From Candidatus Micrarchaeota archaeon (GTDB lineage Archaea > Micrarchaeota > Micrarchaeia > Anstonellales > Bilamarchaeaceae), in NCBI GenBank assembly GCA_037440825.1, contig JBBITJ010000005.1:1-49261 (forward strand): DNA of 49,261 bases, read 5' to 3'. This document shows positions 844 to 43,915 of this stretch, piece by piece. Under the pieces are notes generated by a model. The model saw nothing but the letters and a program-made list of their open reading frames with translations, made no database searches and was not told where the DNA came from. The translations under genes and the position numbers were made by a program. Position 1 is the stretch's first letter. The number at the start of each line of letters is the position of its first letter.

Positions 844-1086
844 TCACGTCAGGATGCCTTGGGACGTGCTTGCTATGGCAGGCGCTGCAACTGAAATGGC
901 CGCGATTATCACGCCGCCTATGAACATGCTCACTGCGGCAGTGGTGTATTTGCCGCGCGCCTCCGCTGGCTGCATCTGCGCGAAGCCGTAGATTATGCCG
1001 CTGAGTATGATCAGGATGACGGAAAGCGTGGGTGCTATGCTGCTCAACGAACCTTGTATCCCTTCAAGGATTGTCTGCAGAGCCAT
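844..1086 (-). CDS. Small two-helix hydrophobic protein, TrbC/VirB2-like pilin
   Basis: 80 aa from ATG 1086: MALQTILEGIQGSLSSIAPTLSVILIILSGIIYGFAQMQPAEARGKYTTAAVSMFIGGVIIAAISVAAPAI. Hydrophobic hairpin with a short charged loop; TATA-like TTTATAAA at 1108-1115. Confidence 0.6.
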   Translation of the reverse strand: MALQTILEGIQGSLSSIAPTLSVILIILSGIIYGFAQMQPAEARGKYTTAAVSMFIGGVIIAAISVAAPAIASTSQGILT

Positions 1087-1201
1087 GGTTTCTATTCTGA
1101 AAAGCGGTTTATAAATATGAGGGTAACGAGGGGAAGAAAAACATATATATAGATTATTGGCGACTAAATATACAAGTGGTTGTGTGGAAAGGCAGTACAC
1201 G

Positions 1202-1659
1202 ATGCTTTATATCGATTACGGGGGCAACGCGGAATTCCTTGAAATAGTCGCGGTTCCGGAAATGAAGAAGGTACTGGAAGTTAAGTTCGGGTTCGTGGAG
1301 GGAGCCGACGCAGGCGTGCGGACGCTGAAGTCCGCGGAAGCGGGGAAGTACGATATGGTGGTCTGCACCACGAGCAAGATAAACAACGGGGGGTGAGCCC
1401 GCAGGAGGTGTTCAGGGCGGCGCTCGAGAACAACAAGGCGTGCACGCTTGTCATCATGTCCAGGGACCCGCGGATGAGGGAGGAATTCCGCGAATTCCGA
1501 GGAAAGGACCTGAAGGAGCTTGCCGAGATAGCCGCTAAAAAGAGGATGGAAATGGACGGCGCTCCTTCGCCCTCGCGCCTCAGGGACGACATTCGCGCTA
1601 TGGAAGCCATCGACAGGACTTTCAAGAGGGTTGCGGAAAGGAAGAGATTCGTGCTGTAG
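1202..1659 (+). pseudogene. Degenerate CheY/receiver-like protein split at a G6 run (or two coupled small ORFs, 1202-1396 and 1393-1659)
   Basis: Joined ORFs give a receiver-like pattern: LYIDY...YDMVVCT...GG/VSPQEVF...TLVIMSRD. The frame changes at GGGGGG (1388-1393). Confidence 0.4.
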
Positions 1660-1708
1660 CGATCCGACCTTATCAAAATATAAAAAGGTTCGCGCACCTC
1701 TCTATTCC

Positions 1709-2482
1709 ATGCGAATACGCCTCAGGATCGGAAAAAGCGTGCACGAGAACGCAGGGGCGTATTACGACGAGGCGAAGGAGGCGAGAGAGAAGGTGAAGGG
1801 CGCGGAGAAGGCCATAGACGAGACCCGGTCGGAGATAGCTAAGGCCGAGAAGGAAGAGGCCGCGGAAGAGAGGAGGAGGGCGTCGGAGACCAAGGTCGTA
1901 AGGAAGAAGGCGTGGTACGAGAAATTCCATTATTTCTTCACTTCGGAAGGGAAGCTTGTTGTCGGAGGGCGGAGCGCAGACCAGAACGATTTCGTGTGCA
2001 AGAATTATTTGGAAGAGGATGACTTGTTTTTCCACGCTGACATACAGGGCGGCAGCGCGTGCATATTGAAAGGCGGAATCGGCGCTTCCGAGAATGAGCT
2101 GGAGGAGACCGCGCAGTTCGCCGCGTCTTTCTCCAACGCGTGGAAGAACGGGAACGCGGCTGTTGATGTCTATTGCGTCGGCAAGGGGCAAGTGTCCAAG
2201 CACGCGACGGGCGGATTCATTGCCAGGGGGGCATTTGCGATTGTGGGCGAGAGGAAGTGGTTTAGGAAGGTGGAGCTGAAATTGAAAGTTGGGATTGAGA
2301 ATGGGATTGCGACGGTCCTGCCTGCGAAGTGCGGACGGAAGATGGATAAGGAAGTGGCGATCGTGCCGGGGACGCACGAGAAGGGGGAAATCGTGAAGAG
2401 GCTGGCGAAGATGTTCGGGGTGCATCCGGACGAGGTGCAGAACATACTCCCTGCCGGAAGGATAAGCGTAGCGAAGCAGTAG
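1709..2482 (+). CDS. NFACT-R (DUF814) domain protein, C-terminal half of Rqc2/NEMF-like factor
   Basis: ENAGAYYDEAK coiled coil, WYEKFHYFFTSEGKLVVGGRSADQND, FFHADIQGG, GAFAIVGERKWF. Confidence 0.85.
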   Translation: MRIRLRIGKSVHENAGAYYDEAKEAREKVKGAEKAIDETRSEIAKAEKEEAAEERRRASETKVVRKKAWYEKFHYFFTSEGKLVVGGRSADQNDFVCKNYLEEDDLFFHADIQGGSACILKGGIGASENELEETAQFAASFSNAWKNGNAAVDVYCVGKGQVSKHATGGFIARGAFAIVGERKWFRKVELKLKVGIENGIATVLPAKCGRKMDKEVAIVPGTHEKGEIVKRLAKMFGVHPDEVQNILPAGRISVAKQ

Positions 2483-2484
2483 TT

Positions 2485-2500
2485 TGTAACTATAAGTACA
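2485..2500. promoter_or_regulatory. Imperfect copy of 16-bp palindrome (TGTAACTATAAGTACA) upstream of purL
   Basis: 14/16 match to TGTAACTATAGTTACA; about 26 bp upstream of TATA box TTTATATAAA (2527-2536). Confidence 0.6.
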
Positions 2501-2585
2501 ATGCGGCTTGGCTTGTTCTTGCGCTATTTATATAAATCTTGGATTACATCCTAATCTAATCTCATAAAGGTCGGCGGGTTTCAGG

Positions 2586-5260
2586 ATGGCCAAGCGAATT
2601 GAAGTGAAATTCAAGGACGAGATCAAGGACCCCAGGGGCGAACGTTTGGCCGCGCTGCTGCGCACCGAATTCAAGGCAAAGGTCTCCAAGGTCGCGGTCA
2701 TAGACGCCTTCAGCATGGACGCGGACCTGGACGAAAGGGAGCTGGAGTTTCTGGGCATGGAGGTGTTCAGCGACAAGGTCGTGCAGGAATACTCCTACAT
2801 GAAGCCACTCGGCCGGGGCTGGCGGGTGGAGATAGGCTACCGGCCGGGAGTGACCGACAATGTGGGCAAGACAGGAAAGGATGCGATAGGGGACGCGCTC
2901 GGCAAGGAAGTTGATGTATATTCCAGCATGGTGTACGCGATAGACGGCGACATCGATGAAGAGGTCTGCGGCGAATTCGGGAAGAGGCTGGCGAACGAGC
3001 TCATACAGAGCATAAAGGTGAGCGCCCCAGATGCGCCGGAAGCCGAGACGTTCGCGCCCAACATACCCAAAGTGGTCCTGAAGCAGGAGGTAGTTGTGGA
3101 GAAGGTGAAGCTCCCTGCTGACGAGGAGAAGCTGGAGCAACTATCCAGGAGCAGGCTGCTCGCGCTCTCCGTGGCCGAGATGAAGGCGATCAGGAAATAC
3201 ATCACGTCCAAGAAGATTGTGGAGCAGAGGGCCGCGCAGGGGCTTTCCGACGAGATCACTGATGTGGAATTGGAAGTGATAGCGCAGACATGGAGCGAGC
3301 ACTGCAAGCACAAGATATTCAACGCCGAGATAAATTACAGCGAGGGCGAGGACAACTACAATGTCGATTCATTGTTCAAGACGTTCATACGCGGAGCCAC
3401 GGAGATGCTCAAGAAGCCGTACGTGGTTTCCGCGTTCAAGGACAACGGCGGCATAATCAAGTTCAGCCCTGCGTACGACATAGCTGTGAAGGTGGAGACG
3501 CACAACGCGCCGAGCGCAATAGACCCGTACGGAGGCGCGCTTACCGGAATATTGGGCGTGAACAGGGATATATTGGGAACTGGGATGGGAGCATACCCGA
3601 TAGCGAATGTTGACATGCTGTGCTTCGGGCCGCTGGATGCGGTTGAATCCGGAGCCGAAGACTTGAAACCCGGATGCGCGGTTGTGCCCCAAGGCGTGCT
3701 TCACCCGCGCAGGATATACGAAGGTGTGGTGGAGGGGATAAAAGACGGCGGCAACAAGAGCGGCATCCCCACAGTGAACGGCTCATTCACTTTCGAGCCC
3801 GGATTCGTGGCGAGGCCCGTGATATACTGCGGAACCGTAGGGATTATGCCTTCGGAAATAAAGGGGCGCAAGACTTCGGAGAAGAAAATTGAGCCAGGAT
3901 ACCTCGCGGTGATGGTTGGGGGCAGGGTAGGCAAAGACGGCATACACGGCGCGACTTTCTCCTCGCAGCAGCTCGAGAACAACATACCCACGAGCGTGGT
4001 GCAGATAGGAGACCCGATAACGCAGAAGAAGGCGATCGATTTCATAATGGAGGCGAGGGACGAGCTCCTTTACGAGGCAATAACAGACAACGGCGCAGGC
4101 GGCCTCTCGTCGAGCATAGGCGAGATGGCGGAGCAGAGCAACGGCTGCGAGATATGGCTTGATGCGGTTCCGCTCAAATATCCTGGGCTCCAGCCCTGGG
4201 AAATACTCGTTTCGGAGAGCCAGGAGCGCATGACGCTCGCTGTGAAGAAGGAGAATATGGAGCGGCTGGAGGAGCTCGCGAAAAAGCACGAAGTCGAGAT
4301 AACCGCAGTGGGCAAGTTCACTGACAGCGGCAAGCTGCACGCCCTCTACGAGGGCAAGACGGTCGCGTACCTAGACCTGGATTTCCTCCACCACCCGCCG
4401 AGGCTCAAGCTGGCTGCGAAATGGCAGAGGAAGACTTTTCCCGAGCCTAATATCAGGGAACGCGACCTTTCCGCTGCGCTGAAAAGGCTGCTGGCCTCGC
4501 CTAACATAGCATCCAAGGAGCACACGATAAGGCGCTACGACCACGAGGTGCAGGGCAAGAGCGTGATAAAGCCGCTCATGGGCAACAACGCGCCCTGCGA
4601 CGCAGCTGTCATAAAGCCGGATTTCGCGAGCTGGGAAGGACTGGTGGTGTCGCACGGCATCTGCCCGAAGTACGTCCAGGACAGCTACGACATGGCCANN
4701 NNNNNNNNNNNNNNNNNNNNNNNNNNNNNNNNNNNNNNNNNNNNNNNNNNNNNNNNNNNNNNNNNNNNNNNNNNNNNNNNNNNNNNNNNNNNNNNNNNGA
4801 GCTCGGGGGGAGCGAATACTACCGATTGTTCGGTGGAGTAGGGAACAGGAACCCCAAGGTGCACGTGGACGAGACGCTGCCGCTCTACCGCGCGTTCTCC
4901 GCTGCTTGCGAAATGAAGCTGGTGAAATCCGCGCACGATATATCGGACGGCGGGCTCGCTGTCGCGCTCGCTGAATCCAGCTTCCCGTCAGGCAAGGGTG
5001 TTGAAATAGACATACTCAAGGTGCCTGCGGAAACGCAGAACGAGGACGCTGTCCTGTTCTCGGAATCAGGAGGCAGGTTCGTGGTGAGTGTGGCGGAGAA
5101 GGACACGCAGAAATTCGAGAAGGTGATGGACGGGACTGTTTTTGCGCGTGTAGGCAGGGTGCGCGGGGACAAAAGATTCGTGGTGAAGAAAGGCGATGCG
5201 GTGCTCATTAACGAAAACACGCGCGACCTCAAGGCCATCTGGAACGGTGTGAAGATATGA
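2586..5260 (+). CDS. purL: Phosphoribosylformylglycinamidine synthase PurL with N-terminal PurS-like domains (interrupted by gap 4699-4798)
   Basis: AQTWSEHCKHKIF, KVETHNAPSAIDPYGGALTG, DNGAGGL, SESQERM, SAHDISDGGL. N-terminal DPRG and YRPGVTDNVG resemble PurS repeats. Confidence 0.95.
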
Positions 5261-6045
5261 GCGGAAAGGCGAAGGCTGCGGTGCTTACCGGATACGGAAT
5301 AAATGCGGACTACGAGCTCGAGCACGCGCTGGCAGCCTCTGGTGCGGAAGCCAAGAGGCTGCATATAAACGAGCTCATCAACAACCCTGCGCTGCTCGAC
5401 GACTACAACCTGCTGGCTTTCCCCGGCGGATTCTCCTACGGCGACGATTTGGGAAGCGGAAAGGTGGTCGCGAACAAGTTCAGGTTCAAGCTCAAAGACA
5501 AGGTCATGGATTTCGTGAAGCAGGGCAAGCTCGTGATAGGCATCTGCAACGGGTTCCAGGTGATAGCCAAGATGGGGCTGCTGCCTTACAACGACTTCGA
5601 GCAGAAGGTGACACTCACGTTCAACGATTCCGGGAAGTTCGAGGACAGGTGGGTGTACGTAAAAATAAACTGCAGGTCGCCGTGCGTGTTCACGAAGGGC
5701 ATAGACGGGCTCATGCTGCCCGTACGGCACGGGGAAGGCAAGTTCGTCGCTCCAGGAAGCGTGCTCAAGGACCTCTCGGATAAAAGCATGATAGCCATGC
5801 AGTACGTGAACGAGAAGGACGAGTTCGCGGGCTACCCGTACAACCCGAACGGCTCGGTGCTTAACATAGCTGGCATATGCAACGAGCAGGGCAACGTGTT
5901 CGGGCTCATGCCCCACCCGGAAGCGTACAACATAATGGCGAACAACCCCTACTGGCCCAACGTGAAGGATAGGATAAAGGACTGGAAGGGCTCCGGCATG
6001 AAGATTTTCGAGAACGCCGTGGCCTATCTGAACGAAAAGTTCTGA
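5257..6045 (+). CDS. purQ: FGAM synthase glutaminase subunit PurQ
   Basis: PGGFSYGDDL, GICNGFQV, GLMPHPE; ATGA overlap with purL. Confidence 0.97.
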   Translation: MSGKAKAAVLTGYGINADYELEHALAASGAEAKRLHINELINNPALLDDYNLLAFPGGFSYGDDLGSGKVVANKFRFKLKDKVMDFVKQGKLVIGICNGFQVIAKMGLLPYNDFEQKVTLTFNDSGKFEDRWVYVKINCRSPCVFTKGIDGLMLPVRHGEGKFVAPGSVLKDLSDKSMIAMQYVNEKDEFAGYPYNPNGSVLNIAGICNEQGNVFGLMPHPEAYNIMANNPYWPNVKDRIKDWKGSGMKIFENAVAYLNEKF

Positions 6046-6067
6046 TTCCCCGCCTTCTTTTTTGCGC

Positions 6068-7471
6068 TCAGGCGAACGAAGAAACGAGCAGCAGGGCGGA
6101 AAAAAGCCATATGTAGGAATCCACGACATCTTCCTTCTTAGTTTTCGCGAGGAACAGCATAAACGCCGAGCCGAGCATGAATGCGGCTGCCGCGCCTATT
6201 GAAAGTGGCGAGGAAGCGCCTTTTTCGAACAGCACGAACAGCGGCGGAACTGTGATAAGAAGCACGCGGAAAGCAGACCAGAACGCCTCTTTGGGTTTTC
6301 CTTCAAGCACGGTGAATATCGTGTTGATTCCTGCCTTGCGGTCCCCTGGCTCGTCCTTGTAGTCCTTCACCATCACCCCGCCTGTGAAAACTATGAAGCA
6401 TGCGGCTGCGGGAAGGAGGAGCGGCTGCTGTGGAAGCACTGCTGCAGGATAAGATATGAAGCACAGGGTGAAAACCGCCCCTTCCAGGATGTATGCTGCC
6501 GGGAAATGCCTCTTGACCTTGATCGGGCTGCTGTATGCGAACGCGAGCGCGGCCATCGCAATAGGGGTAAATGAGAACAATGACGAATTGGAGATTAGCA
6601 CGAACGCTGATGCTGCGGCCCAAATGAAAATGATTGATGCCCATGCGAACGGTCCGGGGTGCGGAGTACGCCTGCGGTTTTCCTTGTCCTCAACCTCGTC
6701 GCCTTTCGAGTTGAGCATGTACGCGATGGCTGCTGCGGAAACGTTGGCCACAAGAAGCGGAAGCGCGGCAGGCAGCGGAACCGCGAACGAGGAGATCGAA
6801 AAAATGGAAAGCGAAAGGAAGAGGAGTATCCTGGAGCCGCGGTAGGACATGAATCTGCTGAACGAATCGTCCACGTATGCGAGCGGGATGAGCATCATGG
6901 CTAACCGGGTTGGAATGAGGATTAGCCCGTCCATCGTCGCTGCGAGCCGCTGCTCGAGGATGAATGAGATCATAGGGTGGATGGAACCGAAAACCTGCAG
7001 GACTGCCCATGCGAAAATCGCGGCGTATGCTGCGAACGCCGCGCTTTTCCTGCTGAGCGCTACGTATGCGGCGAAGATGATGATGGCGCCATACACTGCG
7101 AAAAGCTCTCCTGCAGTGATGCCCTTGACCATGAAGAGCAGGTGTGGAATCGGGTAAAAATACCTCGGGGATTCGTAAATAAATACGTCCAATATTGGAG
7201 GAAGGAAGGCGAGCACGAAGCCCAGTGCTATCGGCGCCGCAGAAATGCGGCGCAGGAAGAGCTTCTGGCCTGCGAGGAAGCATAGCAGCAGGAACGCGTA
7301 GAATGTGATGGAATCCAAGAGGTGGCGCAGGTTCTCGCCCAGCGGCGGAGTCGTACCAGTGACTGCGAGTTCGAGCAGGTGGCGCACCACACCTGTAAAG
7401 GCGGCTGCCAGGAGCGCGTGCGCCGGCGAAACCGGGAATTTTTCCAGCTTTTCCACAAAAGAGCGAGGCAT
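6068..7471 (-). CDS. Polytopic membrane protein with C-terminal UbiA prenyltransferase domain
   Basis: NSKGDEVEDKENRRRTP and KDYKDEPGDRKAGINTI Asp-rich motifs; many TM helices. Confidence 0.7.
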   Translation of the reverse strand: MPRSFVEKLEKFPVSPAHALLAAAFTGVVRHLLELAVTGTTPPLGENLRHLLDSITFYAFLLLCFLAGQKLFLRRISAAPIALGFVLAFLPPILDVFIYESPRYFYPIPHLLFMVKGITAGELFAVYGAIIIFAAYVALSRKSAAFAAYAAIFAWAVLQVFGSIHPMISFILEQRLAATMDGLILIPTRLAMMLIPLAYVDDSFSRFMSYRGSRILLFLSLSIFSISSFAVPLPAALPLLVANVSAAAIAYMLNSKGDEVEDKENRRRTPHPGPFAWASIIFIWAAASAFVLISNSSLFSFTPIAMAALAFAYSSPIKVKRHFPAAYILEGAVFTLCFISYPAAVLPQQPLLLPAAACFIVFTGGVMVKDYKDEPGDRKAGINTIFTVLEGKPKEAFWSAFRVLLITVPPLFVLFEKGASSPLSIGAAAAFMLGSAFMLFLAKTKKEDVVDSYIWLFSALLLVSSFA

Positions 7472-7514
7472 GGAGCAATAACCGCATCATTAGTTTAAAG
7501 GGCTGCGGACAATA

Positions 7515-7530
7515 TGTAACTATAGTTACA
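7515..7530. promoter_or_regulatory. Perfect 16-bp palindrome TGTAACTATAGTTACA between divergent ubiA-like and purF promoters
   Basis: Seen directly; flanked by TATA-like TTTAAA (7494-7499) and TTTTAAA (7566-7572). Confidence 0.7.
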
Positions 7531-7592
7531 ACAGCACGGCGGTCCTTGCGCTGCGACGCTAATCATTTTAAACAAGTTTGTGAAAATAAGTT

Positions 7593-8990
7593 ATGGATAC
7601 CAGCCCTAATTGTAGCTTTTTCAGAGATGAGGAGAAGGTCGAGCACTGCGGAGTAGTAGGGGTTTGCTCCAAGAAGGCGAAGAAGGTGGCACCTGCGATC
7701 TACCGCGGCATGGTGGGGCTCCAGCACAGAGGGCAGGACGCAGCAGGACTCGTGGTGTGGAACGAAGGGTTTGTGGAAAAGAAAGGTATAGGCCTGGTTT
7801 TGGATATATTCAAGAATGGAGATGCGGACATCGACGGAAAGGTCGGCGTGGGCCACACCAGATACCCGACAACCGGGATGTGCCTGATAAGCGACGTCCA
7901 GCCATTCAGTGGTATAAATATATCGGTTTCGCACAACGGTCAGGTCTCCAATTACAAAGACGTCCGCAAGGCGCTAGAGAAAAGGGGCTTCAAATTCACA
8001 TCCACTGTAGATTCGGAAGTAGTGGTATACCTGCTGCACGAGAAGCTCAACGAAGGCAAGTCGATAGAGGACGCAGTGAAGGCGGTCATGTTGTTGCTTG
8101 ACGGCGGTTATTCCATCACCGCGCTCGTGGGTGGCACGCTGATCGCGTTCAAGGACCCGAACGGCATAAAGCCGCTCGTGTGGGGTGAAAACGATGAATT
8201 GATAATGTTCGCTTCCGAGACCGTGGCTCTGGACGCAAACGGCGTCCCGTTCAAGGGCGACCTCAAGGGAGGCGAACTCGCGATAGTGCGCGACGGGAAA
8301 ATCGAGATCAAGAAGCTCGTGGATGCGAAGCCGGCCGCATGCATGTTCGAATATGTATATTTCTCCAGGCCAGACAGCACGATAAACGGTCGTAGTGTGA
8401 TAGATGTGAGGAAGAACCTCGGCAGGGAACTCGCACGGGAGCATCCTGCGAAAGCCGATGTCGTGATAGAAGTTCCGGACAGCGCGCGCACTGCGGCAGC
8501 CTCGTACGCCGACGCGCTTGGCATCCCACACGACGAAGGGCTGATAAAGAACCGGTATGTGGGAAGGACGTTCATAATGCCGAGCCAGCAGAAGAGGGTG
8601 GATGCTGTGCGGATGAAGCTCAACGCGGTGCGCCAGGTGGTCGCGGGAAAGCGGATCGCGCTCGTGGACGACAGTATAGTGCGCGGCACCACGCTCAAGG
8701 AAATAGTCTCGCTTGTGCGGAACGCCGGAGCGAAGGAGGTGCACGTGCGCATAACCTGCCCGCCCATACGCGCGCCGTGCTTTTACGGCGTGGACATGTC
8801 AACTTACAAGGAACTGGCTGCGCACACCAAATCAATTCCTGAAATAGGGAAGATGATTGGCGCCGACAGCATAGGCTACCTTTCCATGGAAGGGCTCAGG
8901 AAGGCGATCGGAATCCCGATCTGCACCGGCTGCCTTGACGAAGGCTACCCCACCCCTTACGCTAAAAAGCTTGCAGACGAACAGAAATGA
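7593..8990 (+). CDS. purF: Amidophosphoribosyltransferase
   Basis: EHCGVVGV propeptide/Cys, LQHRGQDAAG, GHTRYPT, CMFEYVYFSRPDS, VDDSIVRGTT. Confidence 0.98.
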   Translation: MDTSPNCSFFRDEEKVEHCGVVGVCSKKAKKVAPAIYRGMVGLQHRGQDAAGLVVWNEGFVEKKGIGLVLDIFKNGDADIDGKVGVGHTRYPTTGMCLISDVQPFSGINISVSHNGQVSNYKDVRKALEKRGFKFTSTVDSEVVVYLLHEKLNEGKSIEDAVKAVMLLLDGGYSITALVGGTLIAFKDPNGIKPLVWGENDELIMFASETVALDANGVPFKGDLKGGELAIVRDGKIEIKKLVDAKPAACMFEYVYFSRPDSTINGRSVIDVRKNLGRELAREHPAKADVVIEVPDSARTAAASYADALGIPHDEGLIKNRYVGRTFIMPSQQKRVDAVRMKLNAVRQVVAGKRIALVDDSIVRGTTLKEIVSLVRNAGAKEVHVRITCPPIRAPCFYGVDMSTYKELAAHTKSIPEIGKMIGADSIGYLSMEGLRKAIGIPICTGCLDEGYPTPYAKKLADEQK

Positions 8991-8996
8991 AGTGGT

Positions 8997-10553
8997 ATGA
9001 TGGCAGTAGTCATGATTCAGACGGACGAAATAACCAGGATGACCGGTCTCAGGAAGGAGCAGGTGCTGGAAAGCCTCAACAACATAGGGATGCCTGCCGA
9101 AGAGGCGGAAGGTGAGATTGTTGTGGAGATCACGCCGAACAGGCCCGACCTTTTCTCCATCGAGGGGCTTGCCAGAGCGCTGGATTCGTTCCACGGCAGG
9201 AAACCCAGGAATTATTCAGCGAAGAAATCCCAGTACGTTGCGAAAATAGACCCCTCGATCGGCAAGTCCAGACCATATTTCGTCTCAGCGGTGGTCAAGA
9301 ATGTGAGGATGGACGAAAGCGCGCTCAAATCGCTCATCCAACTCCAGGAGAAGCTCCATGAAACAGTCGGAAGGAAAAGGAAAAAAGTCGCCATCGGCGT
9401 GCACAACGCCGATGAGGTCGTTTTCCCGCTCGAGTACAGATTTGTGAAGAACGAAAGGTTCGTACCCCTGGACTTCGACCGCGAGATGGACATCCCGGAG
9501 CTGCTGGAAAGCCATCCCAAAGGCAGGGCGTACGCGCACCTCGTGAAGGACGGCTACCCGATGCTCTACGACAGAAAAGGTGTGATTTCATTCCCTCCAA
9601 TAATAAACAGCGAGCGCACCCGCGTGACTGAAAAGACAAGGAACTTGGTGATAGACATCACCGGCACTCATCTTGGAACCCTCAAAGGCGTGCTCAACAT
9701 ACTGGTCTGCGCGCTCGCCGACCGCGGAGGCGAGATTTATGAGGTCGCTGTCGGCAAAGCAACTTGCCCTGAGCTCGAGCCTGTGAAAATGGCTGTGCAG
9801 GCGGAGGAAATAAGCAAGCTCCTCGGCCAGAAGTTCAGCAAAAAACAAATATTCGAGAACCTCGCACGCCTCGGCTGGCCCAACGACGGGAAGAACGCGC
9901 TAGTGCCACCTTACAGGATGGACGTGTCGCATTACGCCGATATGGCTGAAGACGTCGCGATCGCGATAGGATACAACAATTTCGAACCCTCGCTGCCCAA
10001 TTTCTTCACCCCAGGCGCACTCGCGTACAACAACGACGATGTGAGGCAGGCGATGGTAGGCCTCGGGTTTGTGGAAGTGGTAAATTACGCGCTCACGAAC
10101 GAAAGAAAGCTCAAGCTCGTGCACAAGGACAGCAGGCCTGTGAAGGTGCTCAACCCCAAGACAGAGGAATTCACGCTGCTGCGCACCAATCTCGCAGTTT
10201 CGCTGCTTGACAACCTGGCGCTGAACAGGTCGCAGGAGCTTCCTATAAGGATTTTCGAGATAGGCAGAGCGTACGAAGGTAAGGAGAAAATCCACCTGGC
10301 CTTCGCGATGTCCGCAGAAGCGATTGATTTCAGCGCCATACGCGGCGTCTTGCAATCCGTTTCGTCCGTCATGGAGAAGGGATTCGAGCTCAAGCCGTCC
10401 AAAAGCAGGATGTTCATCACAGGTAGGGGGGCTGAAATATATTTGGATGGTAAAAAAGCCGGTGAAATAGGTGAAGTCTCACCTTATATACTGGAAGGTT
10501 TTGGTATAGAAAACCCAGTCTGCATTTGCGAAATAGAGATAATGGATGTGTAG
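8997..10553 (+). CDS. pheT: Phenylalanyl-tRNA synthetase beta subunit (archaeal type)
   Basis: EITPNRPDLFSIEGLARAL, QLQEKLH, SFPPIINS, VPPYRMDV...EDVAIAIGYNN. Confidence 0.97.
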   Translation: MMAVVMIQTDEITRMTGLRKEQVLESLNNIGMPAEEAEGEIVVEITPNRPDLFSIEGLARALDSFHGRKPRNYSAKKSQYVAKIDPSIGKSRPYFVSAVVKNVRMDESALKSLIQLQEKLHETVGRKRKKVAIGVHNADEVVFPLEYRFVKNERFVPLDFDREMDIPELLESHPKGRAYAHLVKDGYPMLYDRKGVISFPPIINSERTRVTEKTRNLVIDITGTHLGTLKGVLNILVCALADRGGEIYEVAVGKATCPELEPVKMAVQAEEISKLLGQKFSKKQIFENLARLGWPNDGKNALVPPYRMDVSHYADMAEDVAIAIGYNNFEPSLPNFFTPGALAYNNDDVRQAMVGLGFVEVVNYALTNERKLKLVHKDSRPVKVLNPKTEEFTLLRTNLAVSLLDNLALNRSQELPIRIFEIGRAYEGKEKIHLAFAMSAEAIDFSAIRGVLQSVSSVMEKGFELKPSKSRMFITGRGAEIYLDGKKAGEIGEVSPYILEGFGIENPVCICEIEIMDV

Positions 10554-10557
10554 AGGG

Positions 10558-10577
10558 ACCCCATAGTTCCACTATTA
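10558..10577 (-). promoter_or_regulatory. ORB-like element, left (TAATAGTGGAACTATGGGGT on minus strand)
   Basis: AGTGGAA core plus G-string as in archaeal origin recognition boxes; 13-bp perfect inverted repeat with 10903-10915. Confidence 0.45.
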
Positions 10578-10599
10578 TTCTAAGCAAGGTTTCCCAGTT

Positions 10600-10836
10600 T
10601 CAATAAAGCTGCTCCACATTCTCAGTTCGTATCTTATAAACCTCTATTTCCCCTTTGAAACCTCTGAAAAACGAATCCATCACTTTCTCGTACTTATCAG
10701 CAACTGCAAGCACCGATTTTGTCTTGAACGAAAAATCAGCAAGCCGAATCTTGTTGAAATGATAATAAAAACTGCGTTTCAGCCTTCTATAATCCCCTTT
10801 CTTCTTAGGTTTCAAGTCATAAAAATAAACCAACAT
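10600..10836 (-). CDS. Stand-alone Cas2/VapD-like small basic protein
   Basis: MLVYFYDL...YRRLKRSFYY...KTKSVL resembles the Cas2 YD motif and Q/xSV strand. SD-like GGTGA at 10841-10845; alternative TTG start at 10839. Confidence 0.6.
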   Translation of the reverse strand: MLVYFYDLKPKKKGDYRRLKRSFYYHFNKIRLADFSFKTKSVLAVADKYEKVMDSFFRGFKGEIEVYKIRTENVEQLY

Positions 10837-10858
10837 CAAATCACCAACCCCAATACAA

Positions 10859-10876
10859 ATGTAACTATAGTTACAT
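10859..10876. promoter_or_regulatory. Perfect 18-bp palindrome ATGTAACTATAGTTACAT in the cas2-like promoter
   Basis: Seen directly; lies between the AT-rich TATA region (10881-10900) and the start codon. Confidence 0.7.
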
Positions 10877-10902
10877 ACGTTTTTAATTTTTAATATTGTA
10901 TT

Positions 10903-11101: not shown

Positions 11102-12619
11102 ATGAAGCTCGAACCGAGGGAATACCAGAAATCCATATTCAATTCCATAAAAGAGCAGGGCAACATGCTCGTGGTGCTTCCCACAGGGCTGGGCAAAACC
11201 CTGATCGGTTTCATGCTTATAGAAGAAAAAATAAAAAGTGGGAAATGTATGTTCCTCGCTCCGACCCGCCCGCTTGTGCACCAACACTACACCTCTTTCC
11301 TCCAGATTTCCGAAACCGATTCGGCATCGGTCGCGACAGTGACCGGCGAAATCCCGAAAAAGAAGCGCGCTTCACTATACGAAAAGAAAGTTATATTCTC
11401 CACCCCCCAGACGATAAAGAACGACCTCCTTTCCGGAACACTTGCAGACCCGTCCGCATTTTCCCTCTGCATATTCGACGAGGCGCACCGCGCGGTGGGC
11501 AACTATGCGTACACACTCGTTGCTGAAAAGATGAAGGAAAGCGCCCTCATAGTGGGGCTGACCGCCTCCCCGGGCGGAAACCGCGAGCGCATATCCAAGA
11601 TACTTTCCAACCTGTTCATAAAGAACGTCCAGCTCAGGACCAAGCACGACGCAGACGTGAAAGGGTATGTGAAGGAAATCAAAATCAAATGGCTTGAAAC
11701 TACACTCACCCCGGAATTGAAAGAGGTCAAATCCATCCTGGATTCCCTCATCTCGACCTATTCGCGCAACCTTGCGGCAATGGGCTTCCCACCTCAGATA
11801 AAATCCAAACGCCTCTTCCTCGCGCTCCGCCAGAAGATACTGAATATCCAGAGCAACGCCAAATACCCCATCCTCGTCACATACTCCATCCTGCTCAACC
11901 TGCTCCACATGCAGGAGCTCGTGGAAACCCAGGGCGCATCAGCGCTCAGGAGCTACCTGGAAAAGATGGCGGCTAAGGACACCAAGAGCGCATCAGCCCT
12001 GCTCAGGAAGCCTGAAATAGCGCGCATCAAGGCGATGCTCACATCAACTTCTGAGGAGCACCCCAAGCTCGCCATGCTCCTCAACCTCCTGAAGAAAATG
12101 GAAGGGAAGAAAGTGATAGTGTTCGCGCAATACCGGGACCAGGTGGCGCTCATAGAGAAAAAGCTGGTCGAAGCGGGAATCCCCGCGCGCATGTTCCTCG
12201 GCAAGAAAGGCGACTACACGAAAAAGCAGCAGGAGGAAACCCTTGACCAGTTCCGCTCCGATGCGTTCCGCGTCCTAGTCGCCAGTTCGATAGGCGAGGA
12301 AGGGCTCGACATCCCGGCAGTGGACGCAGTGATATTCTACGAACCGACGCCGAGCGAGATACGGAGTATCCAGCGCCGCGGCCGAGCAGGCAGGTTCAAG
12401 GAAGGTGAGGTCTACATCCTCATAACCAAAGGCACCCGTGACGAGTTTTTCCACTGGGCAGCGATAAACCGCGAAAAGAGGATGAAGCGCATAATCTCAG
12501 GCATGCAGAAAAGCTCCAGCAGCCTTCTGGCCACAGACCAACAACCAGAAAAAACCCATTCAGATGCAAAACCCGAAACCCACGCATCAGGACAATCGCG
12601 GCTAGACCGCTTTTTCTAG
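11102..12619 (+). CDS. Hef/FANCM/Mph1-like SF2 helicase without ERCC4 nuclease domain; C-terminal PIP box
   Basis: EPREYQ, LPTGLGKT, DEAHRAVGNYAY, TASPG, GEEGLDIP, IQRRGRAGR; ends QSRLDRFF. Confidence 0.92.
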   Translation: MKLEPREYQKSIFNSIKEQGNMLVVLPTGLGKTLIGFMLIEEKIKSGKCMFLAPTRPLVHQHYTSFLQISETDSASVATVTGEIPKKKRASLYEKKVIFSTPQTIKNDLLSGTLADPSAFSLCIFDEAHRAVGNYAYTLVAEKMKESALIVGLTASPGGNRERISKILSNLFIKNVQLRTKHDADVKGYVKEIKIKWLETTLTPELKEVKSILDSLISTYSRNLAAMGFPPQIKSKRLFLALRQKILNIQSNAKYPILVTYSILLNLLHMQELVETQGASALRSYLEKMAAKDTKSASALLRKPEIARIKAMLTSTSEEHPKLAMLLNLLKKMEGKKVIVFAQYRDQVALIEKKLVEAGIPARMFLGKKGDYTKKQQEETLDQFRSDAFRVLVASSIGEEGLDIPAVDAVIFYEPTPSEIRSIQRRGRAGRFKEGEVYILITKGTRDEFFHWAAINREKRMKRIISGMQKSSSSLLATDQQPEKTHSDAKPETHASGQSRLDRFF

Positions 12620-15600
12620 CGGTCTGAACTTCCTTTTTTCCCCATACCCGCCTTTTCCGAACCGCTCCTTGAAATAGTAAATCGCAGCCGCAGCAGCCAC
12701 GAAAACTGCGCTCGCGAGAAGCACTCCGCTGTAATCCTGCCTGTCCTCTGCAGCGGAAAGCACCTTGATTATTTCATCACTGGCTTCGAGCGCCTTCACA
12801 TATTCCCCCGCTTCCAGATAGCTGTCGAGTTCCGCAGCCAGCGCAGCAGCCTTCTTCCTTTCCTTTTCCTGAATCTTCTGCCCGTACGCCTCGTACGCCG
12901 CCATCGCTTCCTGCGCGTTGCGCCCTGCTGCTCCTTCCAAATAATCCAGCGTGGATTCCATCCCTCCTATATAATCAGAAATCGAGGCGTACTGCCTCCC
13001 AATCTCATCCATATCCTCTTTTCCTATCGCTTTCTTCATGCTGGAAACCGCAGCCTTCACATCCGCACTGTCCACCTTGAAAACGCTTTCGAACCTGCTT
13101 CCTTTAGCATCCGAGGCTGCTTTTGAATAATCGTCCAGAACCGCTTCCGCTTCCTCTACGAGTGCCTGCGCCCCTTCCGCAATCTCAGCCCTTTTCGCCG
13201 CGCTCGCGTTCTCCAACACCTCTACATTCGCCTCCAGCCCGTCCAGCGCTGCATCCAATCCGAATGCATCAACAAGCTCCCCGCTCGCCTCGAATTTGTC
13301 ATACTCCGCCCTGGCCTTGCCGAACATCACCGAGACCTGCGCATCCGCTTCCCCATTGTCCAGATACCTCGCATACAGCCGGTTGAGCTTGCCGGAAGCG
13401 TTTTTCCTGTACTCCTTCATCTGGTCCGCGAGCCACCCATTGTCATATCCACTGAGCGCAGAGACCTGCGCGCTCGCATTCATCCCCTCCAAGGAGGAAA
13501 TCAGCCTCTCGAGGTAATCCTTTCTTGCTGAAACCTTATCGTACAATCCACTTCTCACAACAGCCTCGCCGAGCGCAGCGCCTATCTTGTTGATTTCAGC
13601 CGCCACTTCAGAACGCAGCCTGTCGCGCTTCGCTTCGAGCTTCTCCAGCTCCACCTCATCCTTCCTGATCTGTTCGTATGCCTGCTGGAGCTTTTCCACT
13701 GCCCTTACCTCATCCATAGCAGCAAGCGCATCGCTCGCTTCGTCCACCAACGCCCTCGCACTAGCGCTGATGTTGGAGGCGTTGAGCTCTTTTATGGTCG
13801 CGTTGACGTATGCAGAGGTGTTGTCCACGTAATAACTCACCTCGAACCTCGCGGCCTTGCCCTTCTTCAGTCCGTACACNNNNNNNNNNNNNNNNNNNNN
13901 NNNNNNNNNNNNNNNNNNNNNNNNNNNNNNNNNNNNNNNNNNNNNNNNNNNNNNNNNNNNNNNNNNNNNNNNNNNNNNNCCACGTAATAACTCACCTCGA
14001 ACCTCGCGGCCTTGCCCTTCTTCAGTCCGTACACACGCACCACATATCCGTCTGCGGTTTCCATAGCCTCGACTTTTTCCCCAGTTACTGTTATCACTTG
14101 CTTTTCCCGCACCTCGTCCTGTGGCGGCACTTCCGCGAAAGTTTCAAGATATACCATATCCACATTTGGAACCAGCTCGATCTGGTACCTCTGGTACGTT
14201 CGTTCCCCTATCTTGGTACTCAGGTTCTTGGCGAACTTCCTTTCATACGCGTCTTGCATGGTGTATTGCGCTTCGAACGTGTGCAGCCCCTCCTCAAGTT
14301 TCCTTGAAACCATTCCCCCTTCCCCAATCGCGGCAGGCACTCCATCTATGTAAAGCCCGTCCCACGTTTCCGCCACAGCGAAGCGCCAGACATCCCCTAT
14401 CGTGCGCACATCTCTTGACTCGGTGATCATTGCCGAATAATTCTGGAACCCGATCGCGTCCACACTAACCTTCTCCGTTTTCATCACTACTTCCCGCTTT
14501 TCAAACAAATACCTCTGCCTTTCGTAGCCGCCTATCGCCTTCAGATAGAGCCTGATTTTCCCGTCATAGTAAGCCACGCCCCGCAGCAAGTCTGCGCCTA
14601 TCACGACGTCATCCTGGCTGAATTCCACTTTCGAGCCCGCTTCCACCACCAGATTCTTGCCTGCGTAAGGTGCCGCATTGACCACTATGATCTCGAGGCT
14701 GGATTCAGATTCGCCGTCCAGCACCGCATCCTCGGAATAGAGCGAAGCGCTGGCCAGCAGCCTGCCTGCACCCAGATTCACCATGCTTTCGTGCGCATCC
14801 TTCAAAATCTCCCCATACTTTTTCCGTAGTTCAGCGAGCGAGCCGACCGCTTCAGGGTACGAAATCGTCCCGGCAGACACAAGCCCTGCTTCGGCTTGTT
14901 CAACCATGAGTGCGAGGTCCGTGCAACCCTCCCCGCATTCTTCTATCGCAGCAATCACCTCCCCTCTCAACCTGGGAAGGTCCGAATACCGTTCCATCGC
15001 GCTTTCACCCACGCTGGCGATTATCGCCGAACACCCTGCCAGCAGCGCGGAAGCGTTGTCCCCATTTTCCAGCACCGAAAGGTACGCTCTCTCGAATTCC
15101 ACCTGGATGCCGTCAGTTTCCGCCCGTGCGAGCAGCGCCTCCGCTTCCGCGCACGTTCCAATCGCGCTCCAGTTCGTATCAGCTTCAGCCTCGCTCGAGA
15201 CCGCGAGCGCAGCCTCGGCATCAGCGATCGCCCTCGCATAATACTCTAGCCTCCTTCCCTGAATTTCCTCATCCAGCCCTGCCTGGAATTCAGCTTCTGC
15301 ATCATCGTAAAGCGCCTTTGCCCTGGAAGGCCAGGCAGAGCTCGCGAATTTCCTCTCCACGTCAGAAATCCTCACCCTGGCTTCGCCTTCATACTCCTGC
15401 ACGACCGTTTCAACCACGTCCAGCGCAGCCGAGAACTCGTCTTCCGCCTGCTTCGCAAGCTCCCTTGCCGCAGTCGCGTTTGCGAGCGCATTCTTCAGAT
15501 AGCCGCTTCCGCGGTGGGCTGCAGCTGTCTCGGCATATTCCAGCCTTCTTTTCGCCTCCGCGACGTGCCTCTTACCGCTTTCAGCCAATTCGTCCACTGC

Positions 15601-16593
15601 AGCGAGTCCGTCCCCTATGTTTTCCCCGAATACCGCGCTTCCCCCTACCCTCCACAATTCGGCATCGTCCGCTGCCTGCTCCATCAGCTCCGCAGCGGCA
15701 ATCTCCGCAACAGCTTCCGCGCGCACGCTTTCGTAATTTGCCGCGCTTCCGCTTACCTGTGCATCCACCTGCGCTGCAGCCGCATTTACCTTATTCACAG
15801 CGCCGAAGTAATCGTCGCCTATGATATTCATGGGCCAGCCGAACTCTATCAGGGGCACGTCGTCATAAACCCGCAGGGTGTTGTTCTCCAGCATGCTCCT
15901 CACCAGCGCGAAATCCCCGCTTCCACCTTTTCCAGCAGCAGCGAGCAACGCCTCCGCTTCCGCGCACGCTTCGTGCCCTGCGACGTCCTGTCCGCAAACC
16001 CCTGCGTATTCAGCTTCAATCAGCGCAGCCTCCAATCCAACAAGCGCTCCATTCAGCCTCTTGACCCGCGCTTCGAGCGCATCTAGGGCATTGTTCATCG
16101 TCCCTCTCCATGCCTTCGCGTAATCTTCCGAGAACCACCTCTTCGCGATGAAATACCTGAAATCCCGGCCGAAGTTGAGATTGCAATTAATCGCCCTGTC
16201 CACAACGAAGCACGCGCAGTTCGCGTCTCCGGAAGCGGCGCATATGTCCTTCACGTTATATATGTAAGGCAATATCCAGTAATTGGTGAAGTCGTCGACC
16301 TGCGTCCAGATGTTTCTCGCCAGCGAATAGTTCCCTTGTGCCTCGCGCACAGTGGGTGCGTCCCTATACTCCCCTTCCACGGAATTCACCGCGAGCCGGT
16401 CCAGGCTCGCCTGCGTTTGGTATATATCCCACTCCGGCGAGAGCGGCGGCACGAGGGTGTAATCCACTACATCAGAATTCCCTGGCCACTGGACCTCATA
16501 ATTCCACGGCCTCGCGAACGTCTGTGGAAAAGGGTCTATCGCAAACGAAACTAGAACTAGCGCAAGGAGCCCAAAACCTTCCTTTTTGAGCAT
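12602..16593 (-). CDS. Giant membrane-anchored surface protein (~1278 aa after closing the artefactual gap)
   Basis: N-terminal signal peptide, Ala/Glu-rich helical regions, central beta-rich segment, C-terminal TM and basic tail. 55 bp is duplicated on both sides of gap 13880-13979; collapsing it gives an in-frame 3837-nt ORF. Confidence 0.8.
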
Positions 16594-38233: not shown

Positions 38234-39006
38234 ATGGCAGAACTGGAAGCGTTCCTGGAAGTGGCGTTCAGCCGCCTCATAGAGCTGCTGACCGCCCCGC
38301 TCCTCTACCCAGACATGCTCTGGATCGTCTTCCCTCTTTTCGGGACNNNNNNNNNNNNNNNNNNNNNNNNNNNNNNNNNNNNNNNNNNNNNNNNNNNNNN
38401 NNNNNNNNNNNNNNNNNNNNNNNNNNNNNNNNNNNNNNNNNNNNNNCCGCCCCGCTCCTCTACCCAGACATGCTCTGGATCGTCTTCCCTCTTTTCGGGA
38501 CTCTTTTTCTGATGCAGGCCTATTTCGCGAGGCATAACGAATCATTGGGATGGAACACCGCGTTCGCGAACGGGGTGGCGCTCATTTTCGTGGTGTTCGA
38601 CCTCATGCGCAGAACCTACGGTGCGTCCCAGGAATTCCTTTCATTGCTCTTCTCCGCAGCCAACCTCCCGCACACGCTCGTCATCGCGTTCCTTTTCCTT
38701 TACGCGCTGTTCGTGCTCTCCATAAATTTCTTCCGCCTCCTCCCGGATTACCTGAGCTTCTTTCTTTCATCCTATCCTGTCACCACAGGGCTGGCGTACG
38801 TCGCGATAGCGATAGTGTATTCCGAAATCCAGCTCAGCGAACCGACCGCTCTCGCAATCCTCGTATTCTATTCCATCCTTTTCCTCGCCCTCTTCGCGTT
38901 CAAAACCGTGATGGGAAAGGTGCTCCTGTCCCTCTTCCCTTCCAAAGGGGAGAATCTGGAGCGGGAGTTCAAGAGGAAGCTGGGCAAAGGGGAAATAGAA
39001 CTCTGA
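38234..39006 (+). CDS. Hypothetical membrane protein (~205 aa after closing the artefactual gap)
   Basis: 55-bp duplication flanks gap 38347-38446; collapsing it gives one in-frame ORF with ~6 TM helices. Confidence 0.75.
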
Positions 39007-40886: not shown

Positions 40887-41934
40887 TCAGCTTTCTTGTC
40901 TATTCCAAGCCATAAACNNNNNNNNNNNNNNNNNNNNNNNNNNNNNNNNNNNNNNNNNNNNNNNNNNNNNNNNNNNNNNNNNNNNNNNNNNNNNNNNNNN
41001 NNNNNNNNNNNNNNNNNGCGTTGGCCTTGTCATCCACGTTCAGCTTCACTTCTATCTCGTACGGAATATCGGCCCACATCCTCCCGTGCAGGTGCATGAA
41101 CGCTAGTTTTGTGTTGCCCAAAAACGGCACGTAATCCGATGGCCCGATGTGTATCTGCCTCTCGTCCAGAGGCACCTTGAGCTGGCTCTGCACGCTCTCC
41201 GTCTTTGAAATCTTCTTGCTCTCGAGGCGCTCGCGCTCGAGCATGTTCTTGAAATCCGTGTTCCCTCCGACGTTGAGCTGGTATGTGTGCAGCAAGTCGG
41301 CTCCGCGGTCTGCGATGAGCCTGGTGAGCACCCTGTGCACTATTGTCGCCCCGATCATGCCCTTCATGTCATCGCCAATCACTGGAAGCTTCGCTTGTGC
41401 GAATCTCCTCTCCCATTTCGGGTTGGAAGCTATGAAAACTGGAATCGCGTTCACGAGCGCGCAATTGGTCTTGAGCGCTATTTCAGCCCAGAACTCCGTG
41501 GCCTTCTGGCTTCCCACAGGAAGGTAATTCACGAGTATTTCGGTGCCGCTATTCTTTATCTCGGCAATGATCTCCTTCTCCAGTTCCTCTACAGGCCTTT
41601 CCTTCACCGGCTCCACCATGCCTACGAGGTATTTGCCCAGCCCGTCGTAGAGCGGGCTCTGCCTCACCACGACCTGGCTCTTTGGAATCCTCACCCATTG
41701 CACCATGTTCGGTTTCGCGTACAGCGCCTCGTCAAGGGTTTTGCCCACCTTGTTGTCGGCGACATCGAACGCGCTGGCTATTTCTATATCGCGCACGTCG
41801 TAGCCGCCTATGTCCTGGTGCATTATGCCCACGACCTCGCGCTCCGGGTGCTGCCTGTAATACTCTATGCCCTCTATGAATCCCGCGGCGCAGTTCCCCA
41901 CGCCTATTATTCCGACCTTGATCTTCCTTGCCAT
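40887..41934 (-). CDS. ino1: Myo-inositol-1-phosphate synthase (gap 40918-41017; 3' end uncertain)
   Basis: GVGNCA, NYLPVGS, GDDMK, QLNVGGNTDF, SKKISKT. Confidence 0.95.
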
Positions 41935-43604: not shown

Positions 43605-43915
43605 TTTCTCACCATGATTTTGTAATCTAGATACTCAAAAAGGTTTCTCAAAAAGGTTTAAAATGATCTACATGCCGAGCCCCTTGAGCCTGCATCTCCT
43701 TCCCTCATCATATTCTCTATTTGCCGAAACCCAGGGGAAACTTATTCTCTGGAACAAGGCGTTTCCACTCAAGTTCCACAGCCCTCCCCGCCTCCATTCC
43801 AATATCACTCACATANNNNNNNNNNNNNNNNNNNNNNNNNNNNNNNNNNNNNNNNNNNNNNNNNNNNNNNNNNNNNNNNNNNNNNNNNNNNNNNNNNNNN
43901 NNNNNNNNNNNNNNN

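Follow-up and report, generated by a model that had tools for sequence, protein, structure and literature searches.

A 16-bp palindrome, TGTAACTATAGTTACA, occurs in two perfect copies and one degenerate copy within a 49,261-base stretch of a Candidatus Micrarchaeota genome (contig JBBITJ010000005.1, positions 1 to 49,261; the window, in what follows), and it is a real, discrete, conserved and mostly intergenic element. Beside one of the perfect copies lies a gene for a protein of 78 amino acids (aa). Considering the placement of the palindrome, its conservation among relatives and its association with this gene, we regard it as, on balance, probably the operator of a new dimeric transcription factor, which would repress its own gene and, at purL, purF/ubiA and hef, act from a position upstream of the TATA boxes. 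The reading was built from genome sequences: we infer that the 78-aa protein is the binder, and the same holds for its dimeric state, for the sign of the regulation and for any ligand.

The element had been picked out in a first-pass annotation, made from the letters of the window alone, as two perfect copies and one 14/16 copy, all intergenic and near TATA boxes, with no other copy in the window, and a pattern search of the 49,261 bases allowing up to three mismatches confirmed each of these points. The perfect copies lie at 7515-7530 and 10860-10875; the third, TGTAACTATAAGTACA, at 2485-2500, carries two mismatches, both in the right half-site. Exactly three copies were thus found against an expectation of 0.01, and 0 of 100 shuffled sequences reached three or more. 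At up to two mismatches the same three copies are the only ones in the whole genome (G000; 45 contigs, 875,410 bases, 54% G+C, 95.6% complete), where they all fall inside 8.4 kb. Freeing the central four bases yielded seven extra two-mismatch matches in total, which is within the range of scrambled controls (2-31). The consensus, TGTAAC-YATR-GTTACA, consists of two 6-bp half-sites with their centres 10 bp apart. All three copies are intergenic and each stands near AT-rich TATA-like boxes, which in the window were identified by eye. The copies, the boxes, the proposed binder gene and the candidate targets, in order of position, are:

2485..2500, no strand: degenerate palindrome copy, 2 nt past the stop codon of an RqcH/NFACT-like gene, 85 nt before the purL ATG and 26 nt upstream of the purL TATA-like box
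2527..2536, plus strand: purL TATA-like box TTTATATAAA, by eye
2586-5260, plus strand: purL (PurS-PurL fusion with AIRS, AIRS_C, FGAR-AT linker and PurS domains), candidate target
6068-7471, minus strand: UbiA-family prenyltransferase gene (Pfam), divergent from purF
7494-7499: ubiA TATA-like box, by eye, with the palindrome 15 nt upstream of it
7515..7530, no strand: perfect palindrome in the divergent region between the ubiA-like gene and purF, 43 nt from the ubiA-like start (minus strand), 62 nt from the purF ATG and on the upstream side of both TATA-like boxes
7566..7572, plus strand: purF TATA-like box TTTTAAA, by eye, its centre about 24 nt before the ATG
7593-8990, plus strand: purF (amidophosphoribosyltransferase; Pfam), candidate target
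10600-10836, minus strand: 78-aa open reading frame (ORF), proposed binder of the palindrome; ATG at 10834-10836, one codon after the TTG at which the ORF list began it
10860..10875, no strand: perfect palindrome, 23 nt upstream of the small gene's ATG (10836) and 226 nt upstream of the gene for the hef-like helicase, candidate operator for autoregulation
10880-10898: AT-rich TATA-like region near the 10860 copy, by eye
11102-12619, plus strand: Hef-like helicase, helicase part only (NF010337, E 9.4e-158, 526.7 bits, under the 610-bit cut-off)

To see how far the palindrome is conserved, a check that the first-pass annotation had itself proposed, we surveyed 41 genomes from the order of the window's organism (G000 among them), taking any site with at most two mismatches as a match. 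The motif is present in 36 of the 41, with orthologous sites kept across genera. Genomes of the window's family (f1) carry up to 16 copies, and a reversed control pattern gave none in most genomes. The centre of the motif is TATA in the window's genus and mainly CATG in G018, G019 and G023; in G022, 9 of 11 listed sites read TGTGAC-TATA-GTCACA, a symmetric change of both half-sites. Such concerted change within whole genomes is what one would expect if one trans-acting factor reads all of the sites. When 86 distinct sites from seven genomes were aligned with 25-nt flanks, the information outside the 16-mer did not exceed 0.59 bit at ±1, 0.29 bit at ±2 and 0.19 bit at all other positions, and this absence of flank conservation past the first one or two bases indicates a discrete site of 16-18 bp, which sets it apart from an extended repeat and from a miniature transposon. 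A text search of the non-subscription literature did not find the 16-mer, and further searches with the same coverage, on Micrarchaeota Cas2, on an archaeal purine-regulon palindrome, on a Micrarchaeota purine transcription factor and on an archaeal Cas2-like regulator, listed nothing relevant.

The 78-aa ORF is a real conserved gene, of a family limited to part of the Micrarchaeota. With the single protein as query, 35 of the 41 genomes gave a homologue (33-78% identity where listed); a profile search detected the gene in 59 of the 151 genomes searched across the phylum, namely in nearly all of the window's order and in four other families, with none in the 46 and the 25 genomes of two large families of the phylum. 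The family is small, with 79 cluster representatives out of 1.84 billion. The gene is the constant partner of the palindrome: a copy with at most two mismatches lies within 250 nt upstream of it at 26 of 30 loci, and within 200 nt upstream on 66 of 78 species-representative contigs, two sets that overlap. This own-gene site mostly stands 0-36 nt from the ATG, that is, in the core promoter or the initially transcribed region, and in genomes with a single hit the lone match is often the own-gene site (for example in G029, G035, G040 and G036, the last with a perfect site 10 nt before a weak match to the gene). By eye, own-gene sites are CATG-centred with one subgroup of the protein and TATA-centred with others, a pattern that shared ancestry could explain.

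Presence and absence of motif and gene also go together. Within f1, all 21 motif-bearing genomes (G000 included) have the gene, and all four motif-free genomes (G002, G003, G009 and G013) are without a detectable one; these counts come from related and hence non-independent genomes and are suggestive only. Among the four, G003 (same genus, 95% complete), G009 and G013 retain hef and purF, with neither the small gene nor a site beside them, and in G002 a contig break lies next to hef, where the small gene could be hidden. Outside f1, G026 and G038, in which the gene was not detected, have only non-palindromic two-mismatch matches. The first-pass annotation had suggested a purine operator whose regulator controls, or is, the neighbouring Cas2-like protein, and of this suggestion the conserved operator and the neighbouring gene as the best candidate for the binder hold up.

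If the palindrome acts on promoters, its position relative to genes should reflect this. We classified every listed site of nine genomes (n=94), with gene calls from a simple longest-ORF rule that is crude and makes the classes approximate: 42 sites lie between tandem genes, 15 in divergent promoter regions, 19 between convergent genes, 15 inside ORFs of at least 150 aa and 3 at contig edges. With 79 of the 94 outside ORFs of at least 150 aa, and because these genomes are tightly packed, the intergenic bias is strong. A random scatter that included coding sequences, together with a lack of conservation at orthologous positions in relatives, had been named beforehand as the pattern that would speak against a functional site; the sites show an intergenic bias, with 15 copies inside ORFs, and some orthologous positions are kept across genera. 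For the 57 sites beside a gene start, 8.8% lie at 0-28 nt from the start codon against 34% under the null, and 17.5% at 36-40 nt against 4.7%, the bins having been picked after looking at the data. At purL and purF the order of elements is constant in five genera, the palindrome being followed by a G+C-rich spacer of 14-48 nt, the TATA box and the start; TATA-like boxes follow the purL palindrome by 24-48 nt in G001 and G007 (congeners of G000), G018 and G019. The hef-like helicase gene is divergently paired with the small gene in nine annotated genomes.

The genes next to the sites point to nucleotide metabolism, and beyond it. A purine synthesis or salvage gene (purL, purF, purE, purP, purB, purN, adenosine deaminase or xanthine/uracil permease) flanks 21 of the 94 sites, according to a hand count from Pfam scans of the flanking ORFs, which is far above the chance level, given that such genes number about a dozen in a total of some thousand. 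Sites stand before purL in four genera (labelled g1, g12, g13 and g17) and before purF in three of them (g1, g12 and g17), with further sites at purE in G018 and G032 and at purP in G018. At the 3' end of purB, between convergent genes, sites occur in G001, G007 and G018, and at the 3' end of purN in G007, and four sites at steps of about 1.2 kb bracket the adenosine deaminase and xanthine/uracil permease genes of G024. The other neighbours comprise PCNA (G024 and G032), carbonic anhydrase (G023 and G032), hef, MCM, DNA ligase, FEN1, a Rad50-like gene, Nre, trm1, carB and a dCMP-deaminase fusion. Among genomes with the small gene, a site lies within 300 nt upstream of purL in 8 of 23 (perfect in G001 and G004) and of purF in 4 of 25 (the relatives being G004, G018 and G023); in the genomes without the small gene that were examined, there is none before purL (0 of 3) or purF (0 of 2). 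With these fractions, and with replication, repair and other genes among the neighbours, the label of a purine regulon given in the first-pass annotation proves too narrow. A genome-wide scan, which it had proposed in search of enrichment before other pur genes, brought no further copy in G000; the sites at additional purine genes come from the relatives.

What kind of protein could read such a site? The AlphaFold (AF2) model of the 78-aa protein, with a predicted local distance difference test score (pLDDT) of 90.6, is ferredoxin-like, of beta-alpha-beta-beta-alpha-beta order, with its elements at E2-8, H13-29, E42-45, H47-58 and E64-70. An alignment of 21 sequences has Y4, D7, K20, R21, F23, Y24, Y25, S41, F56, F57 and K68 as invariant residues; D7, at the end of strand 1, is kept in 21 of 21, and Y4, Y6 and D7 are all invariant or nearly so. 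The protein is basic (median isoelectric point 9.6, net charge +7), and helix 1 is its most conserved stretch (K20, R21, F23, Y24 and Y25). From helical periodicity we infer that K20, R21, Y24 and Y25 face the solvent, where they would suit a recognition helix.

The name Cas2-like, under which the first-pass annotation had introduced the protein, describes a resemblance of fold and a strand-1 Y-D motif, and not membership of the Cas2 family. The best PDB rows in Foldseek are Cas2 chains, at weak scores (E at least 0.018, in the range 0.018-0.1; template-modelling score 0.38-0.63), with VapD also listed. The independent aligner VIA places ACT, PII and many other ferredoxin-like chains level with Cas2 or above it. 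None of 21 family members matches any Cas2 model at E ≤1, and PF09827, which finds true Cas2 in 24 of the 151 genomes of the phylum, never finds this gene and finds no Cas2 in G000. An hhalign comparison with 19 true Cas2 proteins of the same phylum gave a probability of 3.1% over only 12 strand-1 columns, in which the Y-D of Cas2 is aligned with D7. In G000, 95.6% complete, the searches found no Cas1 (PF01867) and no CRISPR-like array (no 18-mer repeated at least three times at 45-100 nt spacing), and the small gene's neighbours are pheT and hef. The PDB sequence search gave one chance apolipoprotein match only (E 0.36), and the ESM Atlas returned only the protein's own "hypothetical" clusters, the public names being "hypothetical" or "uncharacterised" where given. 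Thirty proteins picked from the 79 family representatives (27 lower-ranked and 3 longer than 160 aa) contained no Pfam domain and formed no sequence bridge to Cas2.

These observations can be assembled into a mechanism, which we put forward as a proposal. The palindrome would be a double-stranded DNA operator with its two half-sites on one face of the helix, and a homodimer of the ferredoxin-fold protein would set its two copies of helix 1 on them. In the promoter of the small gene itself, the palindrome falls between the TATA region and the start or overlaps them, such that a bound dimer could block initiation and give negative autoregulation. At purL, purF/ubiA and hef, where the site is upstream of the transcription factor B recognition element (BRE) and TATA box, the protein might instead influence how the transcription machinery is recruited. 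A place just upstream of BRE/TATA is where known archaeal activators work, and because of this we lean towards activation at these genes; this is a guess from the position of the site, with repression by looping as an alternative. Paired sites hint at such looping. In G001 (L059:12694), G007 (L071:7911) and G011 (L258:2870), hef has another palindrome about 240 nt into its coding sequence, at a distance of 330-410 bp from the copy in the promoter, and, judged by spacing, the same pair is found in G004 (C99:1186/1520) and G006 (C51:12096/12439); this inner copy is kept in two genera, and the best match in the hef of G000 has five mismatches. The four copies that bracket the adenosine deaminase and permease genes of G024 could be of the same kind. 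A ferredoxin/ACT-like fold would leave room for a small-molecule effector, and in the relatives the predicted regulon would extend to up to 16 sites, enriched at genes of purine synthesis and salvage and of DNA replication and repair.

One could speculate further that a sequence-specific transcription factor of 78 residues with a ferredoxin/Cas2 fold and without a helix-turn-helix (HTH) would constitute a new structural class among archaeal regulators, coupling purine supply (purL, purF, purE, purP and salvage) to replication and repair genes (hef, PCNA, MCM and ligase), that its ACT-like fold may serve to sense a nucleotide, and that it may be a Cas2 cousin that reads DNA sequence where Cas2 merely holds DNA. 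We treat this wider proposal as a tentative possibility, which we would sooner doubt than accept.

Several observations weigh against an operator read by this protein. Sites between convergent genes make up 19 of the 76 classifiable intergenic sites, no fewer than random placement would give; at least seven of them have Pfam-supported genes on both sides and thus no promoter to regulate, and some are conserved (purB/gatE in G001 and G007, purB in G018). The 15 of 94 sites within ORFs of at least 150 aa likewise include conserved ones (in trm1, a Mur-ligase-like gene and hef). The convergent-gene and in-ORF copies fall outside a model of promoter operators alone; they leave room for an architectural or roadblock function, for control exerted from the 3' side, or for a history like that of repetitive extragenic palindromic (REP) elements. 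The protein itself has no recognised DNA-binding domain: 21 of 21 members are without a Pfam or NCBIfam family and there is no PDB relative by sequence, and the fold matches are generic, since VIA ranks ACT, PII, RAM and Cas2 domains alike (Z at most 7.9). Copy number ranges from 0 to 14 inside one genus, which is more volatile than in a classical regulon, and the purine sites are confined to some lineages. G000 has no site at any of the 19 orthologous places that are occupied in relatives, among them purB, gatE, dnaJ, fibrillarin, trm1, purN, thermosome, ftsZ, purE, PCNA, MCM and purP; nor is a degenerate copy left there, the best matches having 5-9 mismatches at 19 of 19 (3 of the 22 queries had no orthologue match). 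The predicted regulon of G000 is accordingly one that has shrunk to three sites.

The alternatives differ in what they make of these observations. The palindrome could be the operator of another transcription factor, for example of the Lrp/AsnC, TrmB or PadR type, with the 78-aa gene merely its most conserved target. The protein's want of any known DNA-binding domain would fit, as would the winged-HTH genes found beside certain copies: an Lrp-like gene that a site precedes by 38 nt (G024), a double-winged-HTH gene with a site just past its stop codon (G001 and G024), and PadR and TrmB genes that adjoin sites in G032 and G018. We consider this unlikely, however, as none of these regulators is consistently linked to the sites, the double-winged-HTH protein of G001 has no tblastn match (E 1e-10) in G000, which keeps the motif, and the motif and the small gene vanish together in G003, G009 and G013 while the targets stay, such that a second gene loss would be needed each time. 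Distinctly less probable, in our judgement, is an architectural element, serving chromosome organisation, parS-like segregation or docking for roadblock or termination, to which the promoter position would be secondary. A 16-bp palindrome with few copies per genome, conserved over the whole order, has the look of such an element; 19 sites lie between convergent genes and 15 in ORFs, the G000 copies fall within 8.4 kb and the G024 sites bracket genes. The first-pass annotation had offered a parS-like, origin-linked site as its second suggestion, and this one is not supported: no ParB_N domain was found in G000 (PF02195; 0 matches, while control genomes respond), its sole Cdc6/Orc1 match (Cdc6_C) is on contig C14, outside the window, and the sites are dispersed both in the near-complete G032 (12 sites on three contigs, at 35,751-202,316 on C1, at 31,666-263,522 on C2 and one on C4) and in G023 (12 sites scattered over many contigs). 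The turn in G+C skew near 10 kb coincides with a change of coding strand in the ORF list. Avoidance of 0-28 nt and the peak at 36-40 nt before starts, together with the enrichment at functionally related genes, also argue against a purely architectural role.

A selfish repeat of the REP type would make the small protein a nuclease- or transposase-like partner, analogous to a REP-associated tyrosine transposase (RAYT), and the strand-1 Asp a catalytic residue as in Cas2. It would account for a single-copy gene flanked by the repeat, for the joint loss of gene and repeat, for 0 to 14 copies within a genus and for the many copies at 3' ends between convergent genes, and it would agree with the conservation of Y4, Y6 and D7 and with Cas2 nucleases at the top of the Foldseek matches. 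Against it stand the flanks, unconserved beyond ±2 nt, the low copy number (at most 16 per genome), the promoter-phased placement and the orthologous positions kept across genera (purL in g1, g12, g13 and g17; the 3' end of purB in g1 and g12); the protein, for its part, matches no transposase or Cas2 profile and no Pfam entry at E ≤0.01, and its 21-sequence alignment contains, by eye, no conserved H-x-H of the HUH/Y1 type. A REP element would be expected to have a unit that extends past its core, with conserved flanks or a tetranucleotide head, in tens to hundreds of copies. We rate this reading as very improbable. Still further down we would place an RNA hairpin, acting as terminator, 3'-end protector or protein-binding stem-loop, which we hold to be scarcely credible. 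A stem of 6-7 bp with a 4-nt loop can be drawn and many copies directly follow stop codons, but the hairpin is weak (-4.4 to -5.7 kcal/mol; z -1.2 and -2.3), its stem is A+U-rich and its flanks are unconserved, where an intrinsic terminator would have a stable G+C-rich stem with a T run after it, the copy at 2485 does not fold in this way, no Rfam family is found in the window at gathering score, and the 15 sites in divergent promoter regions, as at purF/ubiA upstream of both TATA-like boxes, should be untranscribed. An operator bound by the 78-aa protein is thus the reading that we retain.

The remaining genes around the copies, and further ORFs of the window, are:

844-1200, minus strand: 118-aa ORF with weak TrbC/VirB2 and T4SS-pilin matches (E 4e-5 and 5e-4, below Pfam cut-offs)
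1631-2482, plus strand: RqcH/NFACT-like gene (Pfam/NCBIfam)
4885-6129, minus strand: 414-aa ORF without a family, antisense to purL/purQ, most likely a shadow ORF of the G+C-rich coding region
5257-6045, plus strand: purQ (Pfam/NCBIfam)
8997-10553, plus strand: pheT (Pfam), downstream of purF
12602-13879, minus strand: 425-aa ORF downstream of hef, without a Pfam or NCBIfam family
13867-16593, minus strand: 908-aa ORF downstream of hef, without a Pfam or NCBIfam family

The window contains six runs of exactly 100 N (4699-4798, 13880-13979, 38347-38446, 40918-41017, 43816-43915 and 47679-47778). It is only through the scaffold gap at 4699-4798 that purL is split, into ORFs of 751 and 144 aa; in the relatives it is a single ORF of about 965-1,000 aa. 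The run at 13880-13979 separates the unannotated 425-aa and 908-aa ORFs, and in G001 and G032, too, hef has a large unannotated ORF (1,276-1,322 aa) beside it. The match of the RqcH/NFACT-like gene to the archaeal RqcH model is confined to the C-terminal region (positions 380-643 of 645), and the forms found in relatives are equally short, at 249-260 aa.

A further sequence shared by two of the copies was considered as a second box and dropped. The first-pass annotation had pointed out that CTTGCGCT follows the palindrome at both purL and purF, and it is indeed present after both (2518 and 7545); we do not regard it as shown to be meaningful, as its spacing is variable (17 and 14 nt from the palindrome, 1 and 13 nt from the TATA box, at purL and purF, respectively), it occurs 62 times in the genome, and it is not retained before purL in the congeners G001 and G007. 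Among the relatives, three G032 sites on contig C2 (L253, L255 and L255) resemble one another over about 25 nt of one flank, and a likeness of flanks is also seen between two sites of G024 and between two of G018, which suggests locally duplicated promoter modules. G002, a congener in which the standard motif is missing, has another perfect palindrome of 16 bp about 70 nt before purF (L148, contig C84); its outer and central bases are unchanged and each half-site is one base shorter, and it may be a diverged operator.

How DPANN archaea regulate their genes has hardly been studied, most of these organisms being uncultured; the 16-bp site and the 78-aa protein are both small enough to be made and tried in a gel shift within a day. 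If our reading is right, it would add a new family of DNA-binding proteins, with a fold unused by known archaeal regulators, and the first reconstructed Micrarchaeota regulon, in which nucleotide synthesis is linked to replication and repair and whose operator shows coordinated changes genome-wide (CATG centre, TGTGAC half-site). Should the protein instead be a Cas2-like enzyme that acts on the palindrome, this would be equally unexpected.

Several known systems resemble parts of this picture. Cas2 (PF09827) and VapD have the size of the 78-aa protein, its beta-alpha-beta-beta-alpha-beta order, the strand-1 Y-D and a basic helix 1; the difference lies in a fold match that is only weak, in the missing Pfam match and in a genome, G000, without cas1 or a CRISPR-like array. 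ParB-parS likewise involves a 16-bp TGT-N10-ACA palindrome, in few copies and conserved over a wide clade, and differs in that no ParB_N was found in G000, in the dispersed sites of G032 and G023, in the lack of a visible link to Cdc6/Orc1 and in the promoter phasing. For the manner of recognition, papillomavirus E2 and EBNA1 offer an analogy, although no such chain is among the fold matches listed for the 78-aa protein: they are small dimerising ferredoxin-like domains, and a palindrome with a 4-bp spacer is read by a basic helix 1. Similar in organisation are autoregulated archaeal regulators, for example of the Lrp/AsnC, TrmB and MarR types, which also combine a short palindrome and a conserved motif with one copy at their own promoter and others upstream of BRE/TATA in a set of functionally related genes; our candidate differs from them in having no HTH, winged HTH or ribbon-helix-helix, in being a ferredoxin-like protein of 78 residues, and in that 19 of 76 intergenic sites are convergent. 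Bacterial PurR, a LacI-family protein in E. coli and of the phosphoribosyltransferase (PRT) type in Bacillus, reads an unrelated motif, the 16-bp PUR box, whereas here the palindrome lies upstream of TATA boxes, its candidate targets extend well beyond purine genes and the purine sites are found only in some lineages; what the two would have in common is a palindrome before purine genes and a regulator that controls its own expression.

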